The notes below the pieces were generated by a model that was not told the DNA's origin, did not search any database, and saw only the letters and a list, made by a program, of their open reading frames with translations. 62,218 nucleotides of DNA, from assembly GCA_022704145.1 (NCBI GenBank), contig JAKJGY010000002.1, forward strand, positions 1 through 62,218, given 5' to 3'. Source of the stretch: Verrucomicrobiota bacterium (lineage in GTDB: Bacteria; Verrucomicrobiota; Kiritimatiellia; RFP12; UBA1067). Both the position numbers and the translations under genes were made by a program. The number at the start of each line of letters is the position of its first letter. Position 1 is the stretch's first letter. This document shows, in pieces, positions 2,277-11,952 of this stretch.

Positions 2277-2305
2277 CGTTCGTTCTCCTATCCCTCGGTT
2301 CTTTA

Positions 2306-3217
2306 TCATTCCTGGCCTTCCCATCGAGCGGCGATGGCCTGGGTCCAACGGTTGTTGAGAAGGCAGTTTTCACGGCGCGGCACGGACTCTTCAGTGTCGG
2401 GGAGACCGCTGAGCGCAAGCGTCAGGCCGGAGGCCAGCCGTTCTGCTGCGGCGCGGCCGTGCGGCTTGTAACGCGACAGCCCCCACGGGTGCAGGTAGAC
2501 CAGCCGGCAACGGGGTATCGCCGCCGCTTCGCGCGCCACCCGACGTTCGCCCGGCGAAATGAACCCGCCGATGAGCACCGCGCCCTCGCGGGCCAGCGCG
2601 AGTAACCGCGCGACCTCCGTCTCCAGTTCCACGCCTTCCAGCCGCCGGGAAATAACGACCGGTTCCAGCCAAGGATAGTCCAGCAGGGTACGGTCGCCGT
2701 AGGCGGTCCAACGTGTTTCAGGCGGCAGGCGCGGGTGGACCACATCTGTTTGCTTGGCGAACCATTGCGGGTTGTCGTGCCGGAGTTGCCAACGGCGCGG
2801 GTTGTCACGCACATAATCGGCAAAGGCGTTGAATGTCGCGGGGGTGAAGGCGACATAGTCGTGGAAGCCGTCCTCCCATACGTCCAGCGTCGGCGCGTTT
2901 TTCAGCCGCCGGATGGCCTGACGGGAGCGGGCCTTCATCCGTTCGACAATCTGGGGAAGCGAATAATGGGCGCTTCCTTTGCAGACCAAGATTCCGTGAA
3001 AGTGGTCGGGCATCACCACGTTCACCCGGAGGCTGTAGGCCGGATCGTCAGCAGGTATGCGCTGCCACGCCTCCACAACCGTTCTGCCCTCTGGGAATAG
3101 CCGGATCTGTCCAGCCCTGATCTCCGACAGAAGAGCACGGCGCGGCGCGGTGGCGAACGTGACGAAGTAATAGCCCTCGCCGCGGTAGTCATGGTTTTTC
3201 AGACGGGCAAAGTGCAT
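2306..3217 (-). mobile_element. HUH Y1 transposase-like nuclease (RAYT/TnpA-REP type) with C-terminal DprA/SLOG-like domain
   Basis: RAYT-like N-terminus (RLKNHDYRGEGYYFVTFAT), HUH motif VVMPDHFHGIL and catalytic-Tyr helix FADYVRDNP. About 130 aa extra C-terminal domain (YGDRTLLD..VVISRR..GGFISPGE). Start set at ATG 3217. Confidence 0.75.
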
Positions 3218-3356
3218 GGCATTAGCCCAGGCCGGACGTGAACGCCCAGTTTCCGCCACGCCAAGAAGACTTGCCGTAGCGGATCGCGGCGGTTCACCGA
3301 CGCACATCCCTGTGAGTGGTGCCGCTCGTTTGGAATCGTTATCAGTCGTCCGAGCC

Positions 3357-4583
3357 CTACTTGACGCGGCCGGTGTAGGCGTCGGCGCCGGAGTTGTCGA
3401 TCGCGGTCTTGAAGAACTTGTCCTCGGCCGCTGTACGCGCCTTGTCCCAAGGGCGAGGATTTCCGCAAAGCTGCACGGCCCAGAGCTTCAGCTCCTTGCG
3501 GTGCCAGTTGACCATGCAGTTCGTACCCCACGCGCCGCCATGTCCGAACCAGGCGTCCTCCGTGTCCTCTTCCGGCGCGGAGAGTCCGAGAGAGTAGCCG
3601 CCCAGACCTTTCGGACGCGTCGATTTCGCGAGGAGTTCCTTGACCGTTTCCTCCTTGAGAATCCGCACGCCGTTCTCGCCCACGCCCAGGTTCATGAGCA
3701 TCTTGTAGAACTTGAGCTGGTCGTTCGCGGTCGTCCAGAGCCCCGCGCCTGCCGACGCGAAGACATGCGCGTCGTTGTAGGGGCGCTGCTGCATCTCGTT
3801 CTGCAGGCGATATTTCGCGGGCGCGTCCTTCACGCAGTCGTACATCTCCACCTGTGTCTTGAGCTGCTTGTCGGTCGGCCAGAACGAGGTGGACACCATG
3901 CCGAGCGGAGCGAGGACGCGCTCTTTGAGGAAGTCCTCCCAGCGCTGGCCGGTCACCACCTCGACCACGGCCGCGCCGATGTCGATGCCAGTGTTGGAGT
4001 ACTGCGTCTTGGTGCCGGGCTCGAAGAGCAGCGGGCACGCGGCCGCGATCGCCGCGGTCTGCCGGAGCGGAGCGCCGCCTGACCAGCCGCCGCCCTTGAG
4101 GTTACCCTGCTTCGCGCAAATCTCGAACGGGAACCCGCCGGTGTGGTTCATGGCCATGCGGACGGTGAGCGCGTTCTTCGCCAGCACGAGCCGCTTCACC
4201 CCGTTCGAGGTGGACTCGTGAACCCAGAGGTCTTTGAACTCCGGCAAGTACTTCGACACGGGATCGTCGAGCGAGATCTTACCTTCCTCGACGAGGATTG
4301 CGATCGTCACGCCACAGAAGCCCTTGGTCTGCGAGCACTGCATGAAGACGTCGTCCATGGTGATCGGACGTTTTGCGGTAACATCTGCGTAACCGACGCA
4401 GGCGACCTCCTGCAGGCCGTCCTTGTAGAAGACGTTGACCGCGCCCGGAAGCTGTCCGTTCTCGACGAATGGCGCGAGCGCGTCCTTCGCGAACGTTGTT
4501 TTCGAGTTCTTCGGCCCGTTGCCGACTGTGCTGCATCCCGAGAGTATCGCCGCGACGGCGATAAGCATCATCTGTTTCTTCAT
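3357..4583 (-). CDS. Serine hydrolase, beta-lactamase/class C-like family lipoprotein (probable esterase)
   Basis: SxxK (SQTK), YSN and GHGG motifs; lipobox ILSGC. Confidence 0.85.
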   Translation of the reverse strand: MKKQMMLIAVAAILSGCSTVGNGPKNSKTTFAKDALAPFVENGQLPGAVNVFYKDGLQEVACVGYADVTAKRPITMDDVFMQCSQTKGFCGVTIAILVEEGKISLDDPVSKYLPEFKDLWVHESTSNGVKRLVLAKNALTVRMAMNHTGGFPFEICAKQGNLKGGGWSGGAPLRQTAAIAAACPLLFEPGTKTQYSNTGIDIGAAVVEVVTGQRWEDFLKERVLAPLGMVSTSFWPTDKQLKTQVEMYDCVKDAPAKYRLQNEMQQRPYNDAHVFASAGAGLWTTANDQLKFYKMLMNLGVGENGVRILKEETVKELLAKSTRPKGLGGYSLGLSAPEEDTEDAWFGHGGAWGTNCMVNWHRKELKLWAVQLCGNPRPWDKARTAAEDKFFKTAIDNSGADAYTGRVK

Positions 4584-4605
4584 CTGCTATTCCTTGCTTG
4601 CGTGT

Positions 4606-6372
4606 TTACTTGTTGAATCCCTTGTGATTCATGAATTCCCAGATGCGTCCCATCCAGGTATAGCTGCCCGTGCCCGGGGCGGCCTTGCGCTGGAAGCAGT
4701 GATTGCGTGTGGCCAGCGTGTGGAGGTCAGACTGGAGGCCCATGCGGCGGAGCTGCTCCCAGCACTTCACCGAATTCATCGCCGCCCAGCCGTCCGCATC
4801 GCCGTGTATGAAGAGGACGGGGCACGTCGCGAGGTCGAACGAGAACTCCGGGACGGGCCGCGCGTCGTCCTCGTTTCCACCGTTCTTGTTCCCGGAATCC
4901 GCGCCGTCCGTGAGCGCGTACGCCGGGTAGATCGCGACGGCCCATTGCACGCTGCAGGGGAGCTTGTCGAGGTCGTCGATCGGCGCGTAGGCGCGGCGCT
5001 TCGAGCTGGTTGCGCCCATGAGTGTCAGGTGTCCACCGGCCGAGGAGCCCATGATGCCGATACGGTCGGGATCGAGCCCCCTGGCCGCGGCCTGGCTGCG
5101 GACGATCCGGACGGCGCGCTGCAAATCCTGCCACGCCGTCGTGTGCTTGGCCAGTCCGCCCTGCGGACGCGGCGTGCGATATTTCATCGTCACGACCGTC
5201 ATGCCTTTCTCGTTCAGGTAGCGCCGCGTCGGCGCGACTTCGAAACCGTCCGGATTGTTGCCGTTATAACCGCCGCCTGAATAGATGATCTGTATGGCCT
5301 TCGTCTTGAGTTCCTTCGGCAGGTGCCACTCAAGATAGGGCAGGCACTGGTTCGTCTGCGCGTCCGGCATCTTGCCCTCAGGCCAGACCGGTTGCTTGAA
5401 GGTTTCGCCGCGAGCGTCGTCGTTCGGATACCGGGCCATCAGGTCGACCTCCTCGCCGAGGCGCCCGTCATAATTCATCTGGCGCAGGTACTCGGCGATA
5501 CGGTCGAGCCAATGGTCGTAGGCGGTCCCGTCCTCGCCTTTGCCCGGGTCGCCCATGAAACCGTGACCGCGGTCCGCGAAAAGGTGGAGTTCGGCCGGGA
5601 TCTTCATCCGGCGGAGCTGGCGGTAGATCTGCGTGGAGCCGTTCGGCGAATAGATGTCCGTCCCGCCGTGGAAAAGCGCCATCGGACAGGTCTTGGCGTC
5701 GAACTTGAACACGTCCGAGAGCTTCACGTCGATCGCGTCGCCGTCACGCGTGTTGGGGCCGGCGAGCCCGTCCGTGAGCGCGTAGGCGGTGTAGATCGGC
5801 ACCGCCCAGTTGATGTGGCACGGAAGCTGGTCGAGGGTGTCGACCGGCGCGTACGCCGGCGTGAGCGCGCTCGTCGCGAGCAGGACCGTCAGGTGCGAAC
5901 CGGCGGAGAAGCCGAACGCGCCGACCTTCTCCGGGTCGAAGCCGCGCTTCGCCGCCTCGCCGCGCACGAGGCGGACGGCGCGCTGCCCGTCCTGCCACGC
6001 GCTCTGGTAGATCGGCAGCCCCTGCGGGCGCGGCGTGCGGTAGGTGAGGCTCACGCAGACGAACCCGAGGTCGAGCATCCTCTTCGCGACCCGTTCGATC
6101 CATACCCCGTCGCAGCAGTTCTGATAGCCGCCGCCGGAGATGAGCAGCATGCAGGCGCCGTTCTTCTCCGCAGGCGCCTCATACCAGTCGAGATACGGCA
6201 TCACATGTTCCGCGGCCTGGAAGCCCGGCGCCTTCGCCTCCTGGGTGGTCGCCGCGAGCTGCTGGGGTTGGAAATCCGGGATCTTGCCTTCCGGCCACAG
6301 CGATACCCGCTCCCCGGCGAACGCCAGAACGGAGACGGCCAAATATGAAACGAGAACCAAACACTTATTCAT
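4606..6372 (-). CDS. Secreted tandem alpha/beta-hydrolase (two acetyl-esterase-like domains)
   Basis: Two homologous halves with GFSAG and GSSAG nucleophile elbows, HGGTD/HGDAD and HGF/HCF. Signal peptide from ATG 6372. Confidence 0.85.
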   Translation of the reverse strand: MNKCLVLVSYLAVSVLAFAGERVSLWPEGKIPDFQPQQLAATTQEAKAPGFQAAEHVMPYLDWYEAPAEKNGACMLLISGGGYQNCCDGVWIERVAKRMLDLGFVCVSLTYRTPRPQGLPIYQSAWQDGQRAVRLVRGEAAKRGFDPEKVGAFGFSAGSHLTVLLATSALTPAYAPVDTLDQLPCHINWAVPIYTAYALTDGLAGPNTRDGDAIDVKLSDVFKFDAKTCPMALFHGGTDIYSPNGSTQIYRQLRRMKIPAELHLFADRGHGFMGDPGKGEDGTAYDHWLDRIAEYLRQMNYDGRLGEEVDLMARYPNDDARGETFKQPVWPEGKMPDAQTNQCLPYLEWHLPKELKTKAIQIIYSGGGYNGNNPDGFEVAPTRRYLNEKGMTVVTMKYRTPRPQGGLAKHTTAWQDLQRAVRIVRSQAAARGLDPDRIGIMGSSAGGHLTLMGATSSKRRAYAPIDDLDKLPCSVQWAVAIYPAYALTDGADSGNKNGGNEDDARPVPEFSFDLATCPVLFIHGDADGWAAMNSVKCWEQLRRMGLQSDLHTLATRNHCFQRKAAPGTGSYTWMGRIWEFMNHKGFNK

Positions 6373-6637: not shown

Positions 6638-9600
6638 ATGCATTCAGCGCGGTGGAACTGGCTGGGGCTGCTGGCGGCGGCCGCCCTCTCGGCGGGCGGG
6701 GGGACGGCAAACTTTCAGGCCACATGGCCGACGGCGACCGGAAGTAAGACCGCTGACTATCGGATCTACACGCCGCCCGCAGCCGCTGTGCCCCGTATCC
6801 GCGGCGTGGTCTTCCTCTATCCCGGCAGCGGCGGCGACTGGCGCTTCCGCGCCGACGACACGGTCTGGCAGGAGGCGGCCCGGTCGCTGGGGTGCGCGCT
6901 GGTCGGCGCGGGTTCCAACGCGGGTTACACCAGTATCTCGGAAACCGAAGCGCGCGCCTCGGTCGAGGCGATTCTCGCGGCGGCCGCGGCCGCGGCCGCC
7001 CCGAGATCGTCAACGCGCCGCTGCTCTTCACCGGCTTCTCCCTCGGCGGCTTCGTCTCCACCGAGATGGCGAACGACGTCCGCGAGCGCGTCGTCGCCTG
7101 CGTGCCGCAGCGCGGCAGCAGCGCCTTCAGCTCGAGCCAGCCGGCGGCCACGCGGCAGGTGCCGGTGCTCTTTATTCCAGGCTCGCTCGACTCGAACGGG
7201 CTGACCAGCCCCGCCGTCACGGACGGGATCTTCGAGGTGTGGCGGGGCGAGGGGGGGCGCTCGGCCTACGCCATGGACTGGCTGACGGGCCACGACACCT
7301 TCGTGAATCAGGGCTGGTCCCTGGCCTGGGTCTGGCTGGCCGAGTGCCTGGCGCGGCGCTATCCGGCCGGCGTGCCGAGCGTGGAACCGGGGAACCCTGT
7401 CGCGCTGGCCGACATTCCGCTGGAGTCGGGATGGCTGGGCTACAGGCCGTACACGACCTCGTCGAGCGGGCAGGACACCCGCGCCCACGTCGACATCGCG
7501 CCGTACGCGTCTTACACGGGCGCCGTTGCCGCCGCTTCCTGGCTGCCCAGCGAAGCTGCGGCCCGCGCGTACCAGGCGCTTACTTCCTGTGACGGCGTGA
7601 CCACGCGCGGCGAGATCCCGCTGCAGGGGCCGGTGGCGATCGTCGGTGCCGCCCGGCCGGGCGACGAGATCCAGCCGGGGCAGACGAACCCGCCCCAGCT
7701 CGCCGTGCTGCCGGTCGGCGAAGCCTTCGACATCGAGGTCGACCCTCGCGGCTTCGGCCGTGAGGAGGTCACCCTCGCGCCGCTGAACCTGCTGGCCAAC
7801 GGCGACTTCTCGCAGTGGTCCTCCGGCCAGCCGTCCGGCTGGATCTGCGGCAATGCGGCGAACATCAGCCAGGGGCCCGACCTCGGCGCCTCCGGCGGCT
7901 CCGTTGTGCTCCGTGACAAGGCGAGCCTCAGCCAGTCCTTCGCGCCCGTGGCGACGAACTTTCAGCTCCGCTTCGCCTTTACCGTCAATCTGACCCCCGG
8001 CAGCAACACGTGGAACCAGCCGCTGATCGTTAACCTCTTCCAGGCCAATCAGGCCACGAACGCCTCCTCGCCCTGGCTCACCTTCCGCTTCACGGCGCCC
8101 GACGTGGCGACCGGGCCCTTCACGGCCAGTGTCTTCACCGACAACTCGAGCGCGGCCGCCCTCTCCAGCGCGGCTGTCGCCGGCTCGACCTACGACTTCG
8201 TCGCTGGCGCCTTCACCAGTGGGCCCTTCAAGTATGAGTTTGTCCTGAACTACACGGCGGCCAGCGACAGCTACTCCGTGAGCTACGGGCCGGCCGGCGG
8301 CGCACTGTTCAGCACGGGCGCGCTGCGCCTCTTCCGCAATCCGACCAACCGGGCTTTCGGCGGGCTCCAGAGCTTGCAGTACTACGCCTACGTCAACGGC
8401 GCCGCGCTCGACGACGTGCGCCTCTCGGTGATCGAGACGCAGACGCCGCCGATCGCCTCCGTCTCCTACTACGACGGCGACCAGTTGCTGGGCGTGCAGA
8501 CCGAGCCCGGCCCCGGCGGCTGGAAGCTCTCCCACACGCTCGCCTCGCGCGGCATCCACGGGCTGACCGTCGTGGCTGCGGATCCGTTCGGCACCCGCAC
8601 CTCGGCCTTCCGCACCGTGGTCGCGGCGGAGACGCTCCCGCCGGGCGTCACCCATTACCGCTTTGAGCGCTCGCCCGGCTTCAAGACCGACCAGTACGAT
8701 CTCCTGAACCTCTCCTCCAACGCGACGACCGGCACCGGCCCGAAGCAGACCGCGCTCGCCGCCACCGGCGCGGGCGCGAGCTTCCCGCGTCTCTTCGGTT
8801 TCGGCGGCGGCACGAACGAGCACGCCGCGCGTTTCGCCGCCGCCAGCGGCGACGTCTTCACCTGCGCTGACAGCCCGCTGCTGCCGTCCGACACCACGCC
8901 CTTCACGGTCGAGGCGTTCGTGAACCTCGCTTCCGGCGGCGCGGGCGGCACCTTCCGCACGCTCGCCGCGCACGGCACCGGCTCTACCGGCAGCACGCTG
9001 GCCTGGCAGCTCGTGGTCACCGGCGAAGGCTCGGGGCAAGGGCCGCGCCGCCTGGTCCTGCAGTTCTGCGGCGCCGCCGGCGGCATGCTCGACACCGTCA
9101 ACTCCGGCTTCGAGCTGCAGACGAACACCGACTACTACGTCGCCGCCGTCCTCACGCCGACGAACACCAGCGCCTCGGGCATCACCTTCTACTTCAAAAA
9201 CCTCACCGTCGGTGGCGCGCTGCAAGCCTCCAGCCGCACGCACACACAGACGGCGGTCACGAATATCGCGGCCGCCTTCGCCGTCGGCAACCGCTACGAC
9301 CGCGGCACGGGCTGGGACGGCCTGATCGACGAGTTCCGCCTCACCGCCCGCGCGCTCACGGCCGACGAGCTGCTCATCAGCGCGTTACCCGCTCCGGCCG
9401 TGCCCGGCTGGGTCGCGGCGGACGATCCGCGTATCGCCTACTCCGACTACGTCCGCAAGAGTGTCGTGGCCGCGCCCTTCGACGCGTCCGTCGCATTGGC
9501 GCGCTTCGACCGCCTGCTGCCGGTCGCCGGTAAGGGTTATGAGTGGGACAATCCCGGTGCGCGCGTCCGTTTCCGCACGGACGCCACGAACGCGCAGGCC

Positions 9601-11952
9601 GTGCTCTACTACAACGAGCTGCACGTCTCCACCAGCGCCCGCAACAGCCTCGGCCTCTACCGGGTCGACGGCCAGACCAACGCGCTCTGGAGCTTCCAGA
9701 CCGCCGCCGTCGCCACGGTCCGCACGCAGGAGCACGTCACGGTCACGCTGGCCGTGCCGCCCGGCGGCGGCTTCCACGACTACGAACTGGTGCTGCCGTA
9801 CGGCGACGCGGTCGACTTCCAGGGCCTGCAGGTCAACCTGGACGCCCAGTTCCAGACGCCCGCCGCGCGCCCCGCGACGCGCTACCTCGCCTATGGGGAC
9901 TCGGTCACGCACGGCTTCACGGCCAGCGACGTCGGCCGGAGCTACGCCTACCGGGTGGCCGAGCTGCGAAACTGGCAACTGGTCAATATGGGTTACGGCG
10001 GACGCGCCGCCACAGCCTCCGACGGCGCCACCGTGGGCGCGCAGGGCGCGCACGTGATCAGCGTGCTGATCGGCGTCAACGACTGGCAGGGCGGCACTTC
10101 ACTGGCGACGTACAGCAACCGGCTGGACGGCTTCCTCGCGAACCTGCGCGTGCAGCAGCCGACGGCGCCGGTCTACCTGCTGACCCCGCTCTGGGTGGAC
10201 CCGGCCTGGGATCCCGCCGGCGACGTCGAGCCGCTGGAGGCGTACCGGCAGGTTGTGCGCGACGTGGCCGCCGCCCGCGGCGACCCCAACCTCGCGGTCA
10301 TCGAAGGCCCGGCGCTGATCGATCCCGACACCGCCCTTTTCGACGCCGTGCGCGTACATCCGAACGACGCCGGCTTCGCGCAGATGGCGGCCCGGCTGGC
10401 CGCGCTGATGGAGATGGCGGCACCGGCCATGACCAAGACATGGCTCGGCGGCGCGGCGGCCGACTGGGCCGACGCGGCCACATGGACGCCCGTGGGCGCG
10501 CCCCGCGCGATCGACGCGGCGTCGCTCAGCAATTCGGCGACCGCGACGCTTACGGTACGAAGCGGCACCTCCGCAGTCGCCGCCTCGCTGTCGTTCGACA
10601 ACGCGGCCGGCACCGACGCCACGCTCGCGATCGCCGCAGGCGGCAGCCTCGCGGTGAGCGGCGGGATCGGCAAGACCGGCGCGGGCCGGGCGACGGTCAG
10701 CAACCTCACGCTCACGGCCTCCGCCACGGCCGTCGCCGTGACCTCGGTCGGGGACGACGCACGGCTGACGTTCGACGGTGTGAGCGGGCCCGGCGGCCTG
10801 GCCAAGTCCGGTCCCGGCACACTGCGCCTCGCCGGCGCGCTCGCCTACGGCGGCCCGACCGCGGTCGCGGCAGGCACGCTCGACGTCGCGGGCGCGGGCG
10901 TGTCGCTGCTGACCAACGCGGTGACCGGCAGCGGCGTCTTCCGCCACTCCGGCTGCACCACCGTGGTGGACGCGGCGACGGCCAACCTCAACAGTTTCGA
11001 CGGCCCCGTGACTGTGGACGGCGGCACGCTGCAGCACGGCACGCCCAACAACAACCAGCGCCGCGGGCTCTCCCGCGCCTCCTCCTACACTGTCAACTCT
11101 GGCGCCACAATGGTCGCCACGCGCGACGCCATGCGCGACGGCGTGCCCACGGTCCTGAACGGCGGCACCTTCAAGATGCTCAAGGGCTTCCAGTACCTGG
11201 GGCCGCTCACGCTCAACGGCGGGGCGCTCGTGACCGGCCCGGGGCAGGGCGCGCCGTACCAGGCCTTCGCGCTAGGCGGAAACGTCACGGTGACGGGCGG
11301 CCCGCCCTCCGAGATCCGCGCCGAGCCGGGACTCTACAACGGCGTGCACCTGGCCTTCAACGCGGCGGCGGGCTCGCTGCGCACCTTCCGCGTCGAGGAC
11401 GTCACGGCCGACGCGGCGGCGGACCTGACGGTCACGGCGAACCTGCTTGAAAGCTCTCACACGGGTAATCGTGCGGGACTGGTGAAGACCGGTGCGGGCA
11501 TGATGCTGCTGCTGGGCGGCACCAACGCATACGGCGGCGCGACGGTGGTGAGCAACGGCGCGCTGCTGGTCAGCGGCAGCCTGAGCAACTCGGCGGTCAC
11601 GGTCGTCTCGGGCGCGGCCTTCGGCGCGGCGGCGGCGACAGCCTCACGCGTCGCGGCGCTGACGGTGCAGGAGGGCGCCACGGCCGTGTGGCGTTACGAC
11701 GGCGCGGCCGGCGCGTCGGGCCGCATCGACGTGACGGGCGCGCTGGACTTGCCGGCCTCCGCCACGCTCGAGGTGGCCGGCGACGGGTTCCTGCGCTCCG
11801 GGCAGGCGGTGTTCCGGGCGGGCGCGCTGACCGGCGCGACCGACTTGAGCGGCTGGACGCTCACGGGCGTGCCGGACGGCGCGTATCTGGCGGTGGCCGG
11901 CAACGAGGTTTTGCTCTGGATCCGCCGCGGCACGCGGCTTATCCTTCGGTGA
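6638..11952 (+). CDS. Giant secreted multidomain protein (alpha/beta-hydrolase, CBM-like, Ig-like, LamG, SGNH hydrolase, autotransporter-associated PATR repeats), interrupted by a 1-nt frameshift near 6995
   Basis: SD GAGGAG and signal peptide in the ORF annotated 6629-7204; protein-like sequence continues in the 6892-11952 frame. Motifs: GFSLGG; FTVEAFVN..GLIDEFRL; GDSVTHG..GVND..HPND; GGLAKSGPGTLRL and GLVKTGAGMMLL. Ends RRGTRLILR. Confidence 0.75.

Follow-up and report, generated by a model that had tools for sequence, protein, structure and literature searches.

A RAYT-like HUH nuclease with a truncated DprA-type domain and a REPIN-like doublet upstream of its gene in a Verrucomicrobiota genome

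To our knowledge, REP-associated tyrosine transposases (RAYTs; REP, repetitive extragenic palindrome) are the best-known domesticated bacterial transposases. We analyzed a gene on the minus strand (2306-3217) of a 62,218-nucleotide stretch of Verrucomicrobiota DNA (contig JAKJGY010000002.1 of assembly GCA_022704145.1, referred to as the window), which encodes a RAYT-like HUH-Y1 nuclease fused to a DprA-like domain. Quentin et al. (2018) recognised 12 subclasses of TnpA_Y1 proteins and reported, as C-terminal additions, DnaA_C/helix-turn-helix (HTH) domains (subclass 2.1), an unassigned domain (subclass 2.3) and short serine motifs, none of which is DprA-like, and genomes of the Planctomycetes–Verrucomicrobia–Chlamydiae (PVC) superphylum were scarce in their sample (PMC6006769). 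Escherichia coli TnpA_REP binds both a REP hairpin and a 5' GTAG, the latter base-specifically, and is inhibited in cleavage by its C-terminal tail, which plugs the active site (PMC3479197).

The locus resembles the RAYT/TnpA_REP systems, which include E. coli YafM (Protein Data Bank (PDB) entry 4er8), in its HUH-Y1 fold and Y-x3-N-P motif, and in the low copy number, divergent paralogues and housekeeping neighbours of its genes. The accompanying DNA modules consist of a 5' tail and a stem-loop and occur as inverted doublets, as in GTAG-REPs, bacterial interspersed mosaic elements (BIMEs) and REPINs. It differs from RAYTs in that a DprA-like domain of ~150 amino acids is present instead of a 25-residue autoinhibitory tail or an HTH/DnaA_C domain, in that the cognate hairpins of the family are not or barely dispersed and stay at the gene, and in that these modules precede the start codon by a fixed distance and in many cases recur in direct orientation past the stop codon. 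An earlier reading made from the sequence alone (the sequence-only reading) knew of no characterized fusion of this kind; our full-text literature search likewise found no description of the RAYT/HUH–DprA fusion, a mention in the SLOG survey of Burroughs et al. (2015) being possible. We read the family as a large unnamed RAYT subclass, undescribed in the literature found.

The account that we favour, and consider somewhat likelier to be right than wrong, is that of a RAYT-like subclass in which a truncated DprA-type domain takes the place of the tail, with a REPIN-like doublet upstream, forming a compact unit of ~1 kb that probably acts in cis. We favour a RAYT-like hairpin nuclease because a tail, a hairpin and inverted doublets lie beside a low-copy HUH-Y1 gene with a Y-x3-NP motif.

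Domain architecture and conservation of the fusion protein

Translation of the window yields a single intact open frame of 303 amino acids at 2306-3217 (minus strand, as are all protein features below; stop codon 2306-2308), which is assigned as the coding sequence (CDS) of the fusion protein from the open reading frame, its translation and full-length homologues. All the motifs from which a one-frame fusion had been proposed (PDHFH, YVRDNP, YGDRTLLD, PVVISRR, GGFISPGE, LVYLHP and LTLALS) are present in it. A longer frame with an ATG at 3307 was considered and rejected as the start: we place the start at 3217 because the N-termini of homologues match M1 of the 303-residue form and because the DNA 5' of this start shows indels between orthologues.

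The N-terminal half (residues 1-150; 2768..3217) is a RAYT/TnpA_REP-like HUH-Y1 nuclease of the class 2 TnpA_Y1 type. It matches the NCBIfam model NF047646 (REP_Tyr_transpos, REP-associated tyrosine transposase) over residues 12-148 with an E value of 2.5e-15, whereas the Pfam Y1_Tnp match is weak (15.1 bits vs a cut-off of 23). A profile of 36 family members matches IS200/ISDra2 TnpA and E. coli TnpA_REP 4er8 in the PDB, and the AlphaFold2 model of the whole protein (pLDDT 92.6, pTM 0.82) has 4er8 as its best Foldseek match (E 7.6e-7, TMt 0.62), in agreement with the RAYT/HUH nuclease call of the sequence-only reading. The HUH motif H72-F-H74 (2996..3004) lies within MPDHFHG, of which M69, P70, D71, H72 and H74 are invariant among the 36 sequences. 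The same sequences have an invariant Y135 and N139, and a P140 conserved in at least 90%, in the catalytic tyrosine helix Y135-V-R-D-N139-P140 (2798..2815); Y-x3-N-P is the signature of class 2 TnpA_Y1 proteins (PMC6006769).

The C-terminal half (residues 150-303; 2309..2770) is a cut-down Rossmann (SLOG) domain of the DprA clade, as indicated by profile, AlphaFold and Foldseek comparisons. The 36-member family profile matches Helicobacter pylori DprA over residues 169-275 (E 7e-6), and a C-terminal-only alignment of 34 sequences has H. pylori DprA as its sole PDB match (E 5e-5). An AlphaFold model of the domain alone (pLDDT 93.9, pTM 0.90) returned 14 Foldseek matches at E <= 1e-3 (query-normalised TM 0.63-0.69), all of them DprA from H. 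pylori, Streptococcus pneumoniae and Rhodopseudomonas palustris, or the DprA-like ShosA. The next-best match stands at E 0.1, the LOG (3sbx) and TRPM SLOG folds score just E 0.6-0.7, and ThsA is not among the matches of this search. Because all significant structural matches are DprA or ShosA, residues ~155-300 belong specifically to the DprA clade of Rossmann folds. The DprA/SLOG resemblance had been proposed by eye, with a structure search named as the refuting test; it was borne out by that search. No Pfam, NCBIfam or PADLOC model matches the C-terminal domain.

In addition to the DprA-clade Rossmann fold, the domain shares with DprA/Smf proteins (PF02481; H. pylori 4ljk/4ljr, S. pneumoniae 3uqz) the N-terminal G-D/N-x-x-L-L strand and probably parts of both single-stranded DNA (ssDNA) motifs, which Wang et al. 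defined as G-S/T/A-R (Arg52) and F/L/Y-x-x-R-N/D (Phe140-Asn144) (PMC3950713). Where the first motif would stand, family members carry x-S190-R191, whose arginine is conserved in at least 90% of sequences. At the second, which was placed by spacing and not by residue-level superposition, it has C285-x-x-x-N289: the invariant asparagine falls at the N/D of the motif, whereas the arginine is lost and an invariant Cys285 is new. The loop S221-P-G-E224 after the second strand (2546..2557) is another invariant that DprA does not have (S221 and E224 invariant, P222 and G223 nearly so); in the alignment to H. pylori DprA it sits at SG.A.G.D, the glycine-rich SLOG ligand loop.

The protein terminates ~12 residues past N289 and its C-terminal domain stops near residue 155 of H. 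pylori DprA, Foldseek covering ~150 of the 213-220 H. pylori DprA residues (TMt ~0.5). What is present thus corresponds to roughly two thirds of the DprA domain, counted from its start: the last third is missing, and with it the dimer interface and the RecA-contact region, as are the sterile alpha motif (SAM) and winged-helix domains. The dimer interface of H. pylori DprA comprises P183/L196/F205 (PMC3950713), and the RecA contacts of S. pneumoniae DprA, at positions 235-281, involve E235, M238, D243, E265 and residues 249-275 (PMC4066776); all these positions lie past the end of the domain. A canonical DprA is encoded elsewhere in the genome (262.8 bits against PF02481). Since the ssDNA motifs are partly kept, the last third is missing and a normal DprA is available elsewhere, a retained base or ssDNA pocket is plausible and RecA loading by this domain is not.

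The fusion is not a one-off, as could have been supposed from the sequence-only reading, which missed this point: it belongs to a very large family. A word-indexed search retrieved 140 relatives, nearly all full length at ~300 amino acids, and full-length homologues match the protein from end to end. A full HMMER scan with the C-terminal profile then matched 1,765 representatives of 50%-identity clusters at E <= 1e-3, of which 1,242 at E <= 1e-10, and the DprA-like domain is C-terminal in nearly all full-length matches. The RAYT-like N-terminus was present in eight of eight long matches sampled, and the HUH, Y-x3-NP and S-P-G-E motifs occur together in 76 of 78 family genes from the loci collected. 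Both domains are under purifying selection, with a ratio of nonsynonymous to synonymous substitution rates (dN/dS) of 0.10-0.15 for each domain against the orthologues at loci L014 and L020, at dS 0.23-0.71.

Hairpin modules at the gene and in the genome

An inverted doublet of hairpin modules, in which the tail TTGGCGTRGCGGA precedes a TTCA-looped stem, lies directly upstream of the ATG (3232-3303). The proximal module (3232..3265, coding strand, minus) comprises the tail CTTGGCGTGGCGGAAA and then CTGGGCG-TTCA-CGTCCGG, its loop being 25 nt before the ATG. The distal module is inverted (3270..3303, plus strand) and comprises the tail CTTGCCGTAGCGGATC and then GCGGCGG-TTCA-CCGACGC, with one stem mismatch; the spacer between the two modules is 4 nt. 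Complementarity within the inverted repeat I1 (3238-3265 with 3270-3297) is 71%, and the DNA fold of the doublet has a z-score of -3.75. The same doublet is found at L014, L015 and L020, and the arrangement of a proximal and a distal module resembles a REPIN.

DNA homology with the orthologous units extends over 2292..3311 (minus strand), that is, the gene, the upstream doublet and ~14 nt past the stop codon. By blastn, 2292-3308 aligns to L014 at 91.6% identity and 2331-3311 aligns to L020 at 82.8% identity, the flanks outside being different in each case. For both relatives homology ends just outside the upstream doublet, at 3308-3311.

Aligning the flanks of homologues in search of conserved palindromes had been proposed along with the domain call, and this comparison revealed subgroup-specific hairpin modules before the ATG; the gene's own upstream modules had been missed. 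A stem closed by a TTCA or TTTA loop, with the loop 23-29 nt before the ATG, is present at 14 of 71 non-redundant loci, the background being 0.28% per 70 nt (P ~3e-22). Modules of this kind extend to paralogues whose identity to the query is just 28-35%, and they usually have an inverted partner 75-125 nt upstream. The 5' tail is conserved (TTGGCGTRGCGGA in the query's group, ATCCAGTnnCAG in a distant group) and the loop is invariant, whereas the stems vary between loci. Different modules mark other subgroups, for example those with stems built on CATTATTG or CAATAATG, on GGGGCACGAGTGCCCC and on CCGCCGCTTGCGGCGG; these frequently form arrays. Exact direct repeats of at least 12 nt between the upstream and downstream flanks were detected at 18 of 64 loci vs 1.75% of mismatched controls, and direct repeats that bear hairpins measure ~80 nt in L023 and ~42 nt in L017. 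At two loci (L053 ~6910-7100 and L054 ~6880-7050), the first family gene is succeeded directly, in tandem, by another that has the same module upstream.

A hairpin within the coding sequence, TCGGCGGG-TTCAT-TTCGCCGG over the GGFISPG codons, was considered as a target and rejected. It needs three G-T pairs, and across 67 genes pairing at this site averages 1.5 bp vs 1.65 bp in synonymous-codon controls, which is no better. The CDS of the fusion gene contains no tail motif.

The source genome (G000) is a metagenome-assembled genome (MAG) of 415 contigs and 88% completeness, so that repeat copy numbers in it are lower bounds. Within it, the tail motif is no commoner than its reversed control, and the flanks of the gene have no other copy. 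The complete genome G021 has six GCCATTATTGGC sites, five of them flanking a single family gene. On its 6.1-Mb sequence (G021:C1), hairpin cores that match SCCATTNTTGGS lie on the plus strand at 8 of 10 sites between 0.16 and 1.92 Mb and on the minus strand at 14 of 16 sites between 1.98 and 4.97 Mb. A simple replichore bias of these hairpins was considered and discarded, as the strand switch near 1.95 Mb misfits the position of dnaA at 3.20 Mb.

Other hairpin families are present in G000. Two are REP/BIME-like, namely family A, GGCAGGCTCGTAGCGCCTGCCGTACTGG (~42 copies), and family B, CGTCGCACGGGCATCC(C)TGCCCGTGC (~40-77 copies). They often alternate with a spacing of ~42 nt, and many are at contig ends (C45, C47, C61, C112, C126, C283, C300, C306, C345, C381 and others). 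We discarded both as substrates of the enzyme: none is in the window or adjoins any Y1 gene. Arrays of CCGATACCGA(C/T)CCCGA, whose top 16-mer occurs 26 times, form hairpins just 5' of genes starting ATGACCGCCAACAAC (C47, C114, C167, C259, C284, C401 and others); according to the sequence-only reading, related copies lie at 13626-58075 of the window.

Relatives and gene neighbourhood

The hosts of the family are mostly MAGs of Lentisphaerae, Kiritimatiellia and Verrucomicrobia, with some Prevotella and Muribaculaceae. Of 41 related genomes, 34 contain family matches, at most 13 in any one of them, and paralogues inside one genome share 28-50% identity. RAYT paralogues are likewise divergent within a genome. 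In G000, the fusion gene is single copy and is accompanied by one divergent paralogue (C260:3904-5124, minus strand), which has the motifs PNHFH, YIRDNPARW and TSPEE, proline-rich low-complexity inserts with APGVYPQYR and PGFIPGVPVA repeats, and a TTCAT-loop hairpin, CACCGGGG-TTCAT-CCCCGGTG, directly 3' of its stop codon. With their SNHFH and YIDLNP motifs, three further Y1 genes of ~345 amino acids in this genome (C282:20365-21420, C415:755-1828 and C63:10142-11179) are similar to subclass 2.1 as defined by Quentin et al.; they also encode a long C-terminal domain.

The fusion gene belongs to a run of four consecutive co-directional minus-strand genes (177 to ~6400), as had been noted from the sequence, together with genes for an LVIVD-repeat protein, a beta-lactamase-family protein and an alpha/beta-hydrolase esterase. 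The absence of a tnpB partner was likewise read correctly: none is among these neighbours. Across 80 loci no neighbour family recurs as a conserved partner gene. Among 20 sampled relatives, the 13 identifiable neighbours are housekeeping genes; the neighbours in this sample include SecA, UvrA, transketolase, CPSase, sulfatase, GH38 and oxidoreductase genes.

The nearest relative, G010 (93% amino acid identity), has the same esterase gene upstream of the unit and lacks the beta-lactamase-family gene, so that its esterase stop codon and HUH unit are 12 bp apart. Relative to G010, the beta-lactamase-family gene (window 3309-4607; CDS 3357-4583, PF00144) is an indel. On the other side, 23.6 kb separate the HUH unit from the LVIVD gene in G010, and pieces of this DNA map to six other G000 contigs. 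Synteny is broken on either side of the unit; this was considered as evidence of mobility and set aside, because this mapping to six contigs indicates that G000 and G010 are rearranged in general. An empty site for the L020 context was not found, its two flanks being on different G000 contigs. G010 also contains, on C13 at ~41.0-41.3 kb (L102 ~11100-11400, plus strand), a remnant like the last 35 residues of a family member (RALWLSPYPADMLAATRETCLACNGWA), which is convergent to the orthologous HUH-DprA gene and adjoins a frame containing a string like a topoisomerase-type zinc finger.

Weighing the proposed roles

The size of the family, the identities of its domains, the anatomy of the hairpins and the purifying selection are established by the data above. 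For the favoured RAYT-like hairpin nuclease, we infer the substrate, the chemistry and the role of the DprA-like domain as follows. The N-terminal domain would bind the folded module on ssDNA, made up of the 5' tail and the stem with its GTTCAC loop. A metal ion would be held by H72, H74 and N139, and Y135 would cut nearby via a 5'-phosphotyrosine link and could rejoin strands. The DprA-like domain would keep a base or ssDNA pocket formed by S190-R191, S-P-G-E 221-224, C285 and N289, with which it most likely grips adjacent ssDNA; it may also gate the active site, and RecA loading would not be expected of it. In this genome the unit probably acts in cis, and its action would be on its own upstream doublet, either in the control of its own expression or in the maintenance of the unit; REP spreading by it is unlikely here. 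We read the unit as REPtron-like, with hairpins on one side only in the window. An RNA-level role for the proximal hairpin would also fit its fixed distance to the ATG and is not exclusive of a role in DNA.

Several observations weigh against this account. The NF047646 score of 56.6 bits is under the curated cut-off of 80, and the protein thereby differs from RAYTs proper; the N-terminal half is for this reason a relative, and not an equivalog, of the RAYT model. The homology to DprA is remote: Pfam DNA_processg_A (PF02481) matches neither the window protein nor any of 34 family C-terminal domains, and hhalign of the C-terminal domain against this genome's own DprA is not significant. The module is not dispersed in G000, where only the window copy carries the hairpin and hairpins with TTCA and TGAA loops number 2 and 5; the partner that defines a RAYT, a REP population, is therefore absent from this genome. 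In G021 a looser pattern yields 26 sites vs 3 in the control, which amounts to weak dispersal. The window copy has no module downstream of the gene. The covariation count for the stems is descriptive only, since the hairpins were chosen for pairing and the count is biased accordingly, and the hairpins could instead be RNA structures or protein operators.

A still-mobile insertion sequence (IS) of IS200/IS605 type, with the hairpins as its left and right ends and excision as a single-stranded circle, would account for the hairpin-bearing direct repeats that flank the gene at 18 of 64 loci and for the arrest of orthologue homology at the same upstream point (3308-3311) in two comparisons. The catalytic fold is the same as that of the TnpA proteins of IS608 and ISDra2, and many relatives have similar same-strand hairpins flanking the gene, as IS left and right ends do. 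The G+C content at third codon positions is also lower in the fusion gene (0.743) than in its four neighbours (0.857-0.920), as the sequence-only reading had seen in its greater use of A/T at these positions. Yet copies within a genome are just 28-50% identical, and there has therefore been no recent transposition; G000 holds a single copy, and no near-identical copies exist. The protein is twice as long as IS200/IS605 TnpA and has Y-x3-NP instead of Y-x3-Q, no tnpB accompanies the fusion gene, the window copy lacks a downstream end and no empty site was found. We consider a mobile IS unlikely on these grounds. At the other extreme, one could take the gene for a decaying relic with no present function, given that modules are on one side only and that G000 has no dispersed target hairpins. 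An intact open reading frame with all catalytic residues present, and dN/dS values of 0.10-0.15 for either domain in comparisons with orthologues diverged to dS 0.23-0.71, make this extremely improbable.

The DprA-like domain invites two further explanations. In a nuclease linked to defence or restriction, it would sense foreign ssDNA or a nucleotide signal and activate the HUH domain. ShosA of the Shosta defence system (PDB 8zva) is among the structural matches and is likewise a DprA-like Rossmann domain recruited outside transformation, and SLOG domains are nucleotide sensors in Thoeris; a sensor at the C-terminal position is plausible because the E. coli TnpA_REP tail at that position is autoinhibitory. 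ShosA, however, has another enzymatic module and a partner toxin, whereas no partner gene was found here. PADLOC defence models gave no match, no neighbour is conserved across 80 loci, and the neighbours in the window (LVIVD-repeat, beta-lactamase-family and esterase genes) and the 13 identifiable ones of relatives (housekeeping) do not point to defence. The structural matches are in the DprA clade, with ThsA absent and the LOG and TRPM SLOG folds at E 0.6-0.7. A defence role is thus quite unlikely in our view. The sequence-only reading had proposed instead that one chain cuts a hairpin and uses its DprA domain to pass the single strand on to RecA. The domain call on which this cut-and-hand-off enzyme was built has held, with a fold of the DprA clade and an ssDNA pocket that is partly kept (R191 at least 90% conserved, N289 invariant). 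The hand-off to RecA has not: the C-terminal third of DprA, including the dimer interface and the RecA-contact residues, is missing, and a canonical DprA is encoded elsewhere in the genome, which leaves this mechanism very unlikely.

A more specific proposal, which we put forward tentatively and rate as rather unlikely, is that of a hairpin-guided ssDNA enzyme in which the DprA domain acts as a sensor that unlocks the HUH site only when the enzyme's own module is extruded near exposed ssDNA, the module being both substrate and expression switch. The truncated DprA domain would occupy the place of the RAYT autoinhibitory tail, and the exposed ssDNA could be that of a replication fork or a transcription bubble, for instance. 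If this proposal were true, each of the many paralogues would have a private protein-hairpin pair.

The RAYT-like reading that we favour offers several new handles on the role of RAYTs, with more than 1,000 clusters at 50% identity, concentrated in the PVC superphylum and gut Bacteroidales. In this subclass a DprA-derived ssDNA module stands in for the regulatory tail, and private hairpins are kept at a fixed place by the gene. Because the enzyme is under selection in a genome without dispersed REPs, a RAYT-like role can here be examined apart from REP spreading. After ShosA, the fusion is also the second case on record in which the DprA fold has been recruited outside transformation. HUH enzymes are in use as sequence-specific ssDNA tags, and the family may provide natural protein-hairpin pairs for studying how HUH proteins read ssDNA structures.

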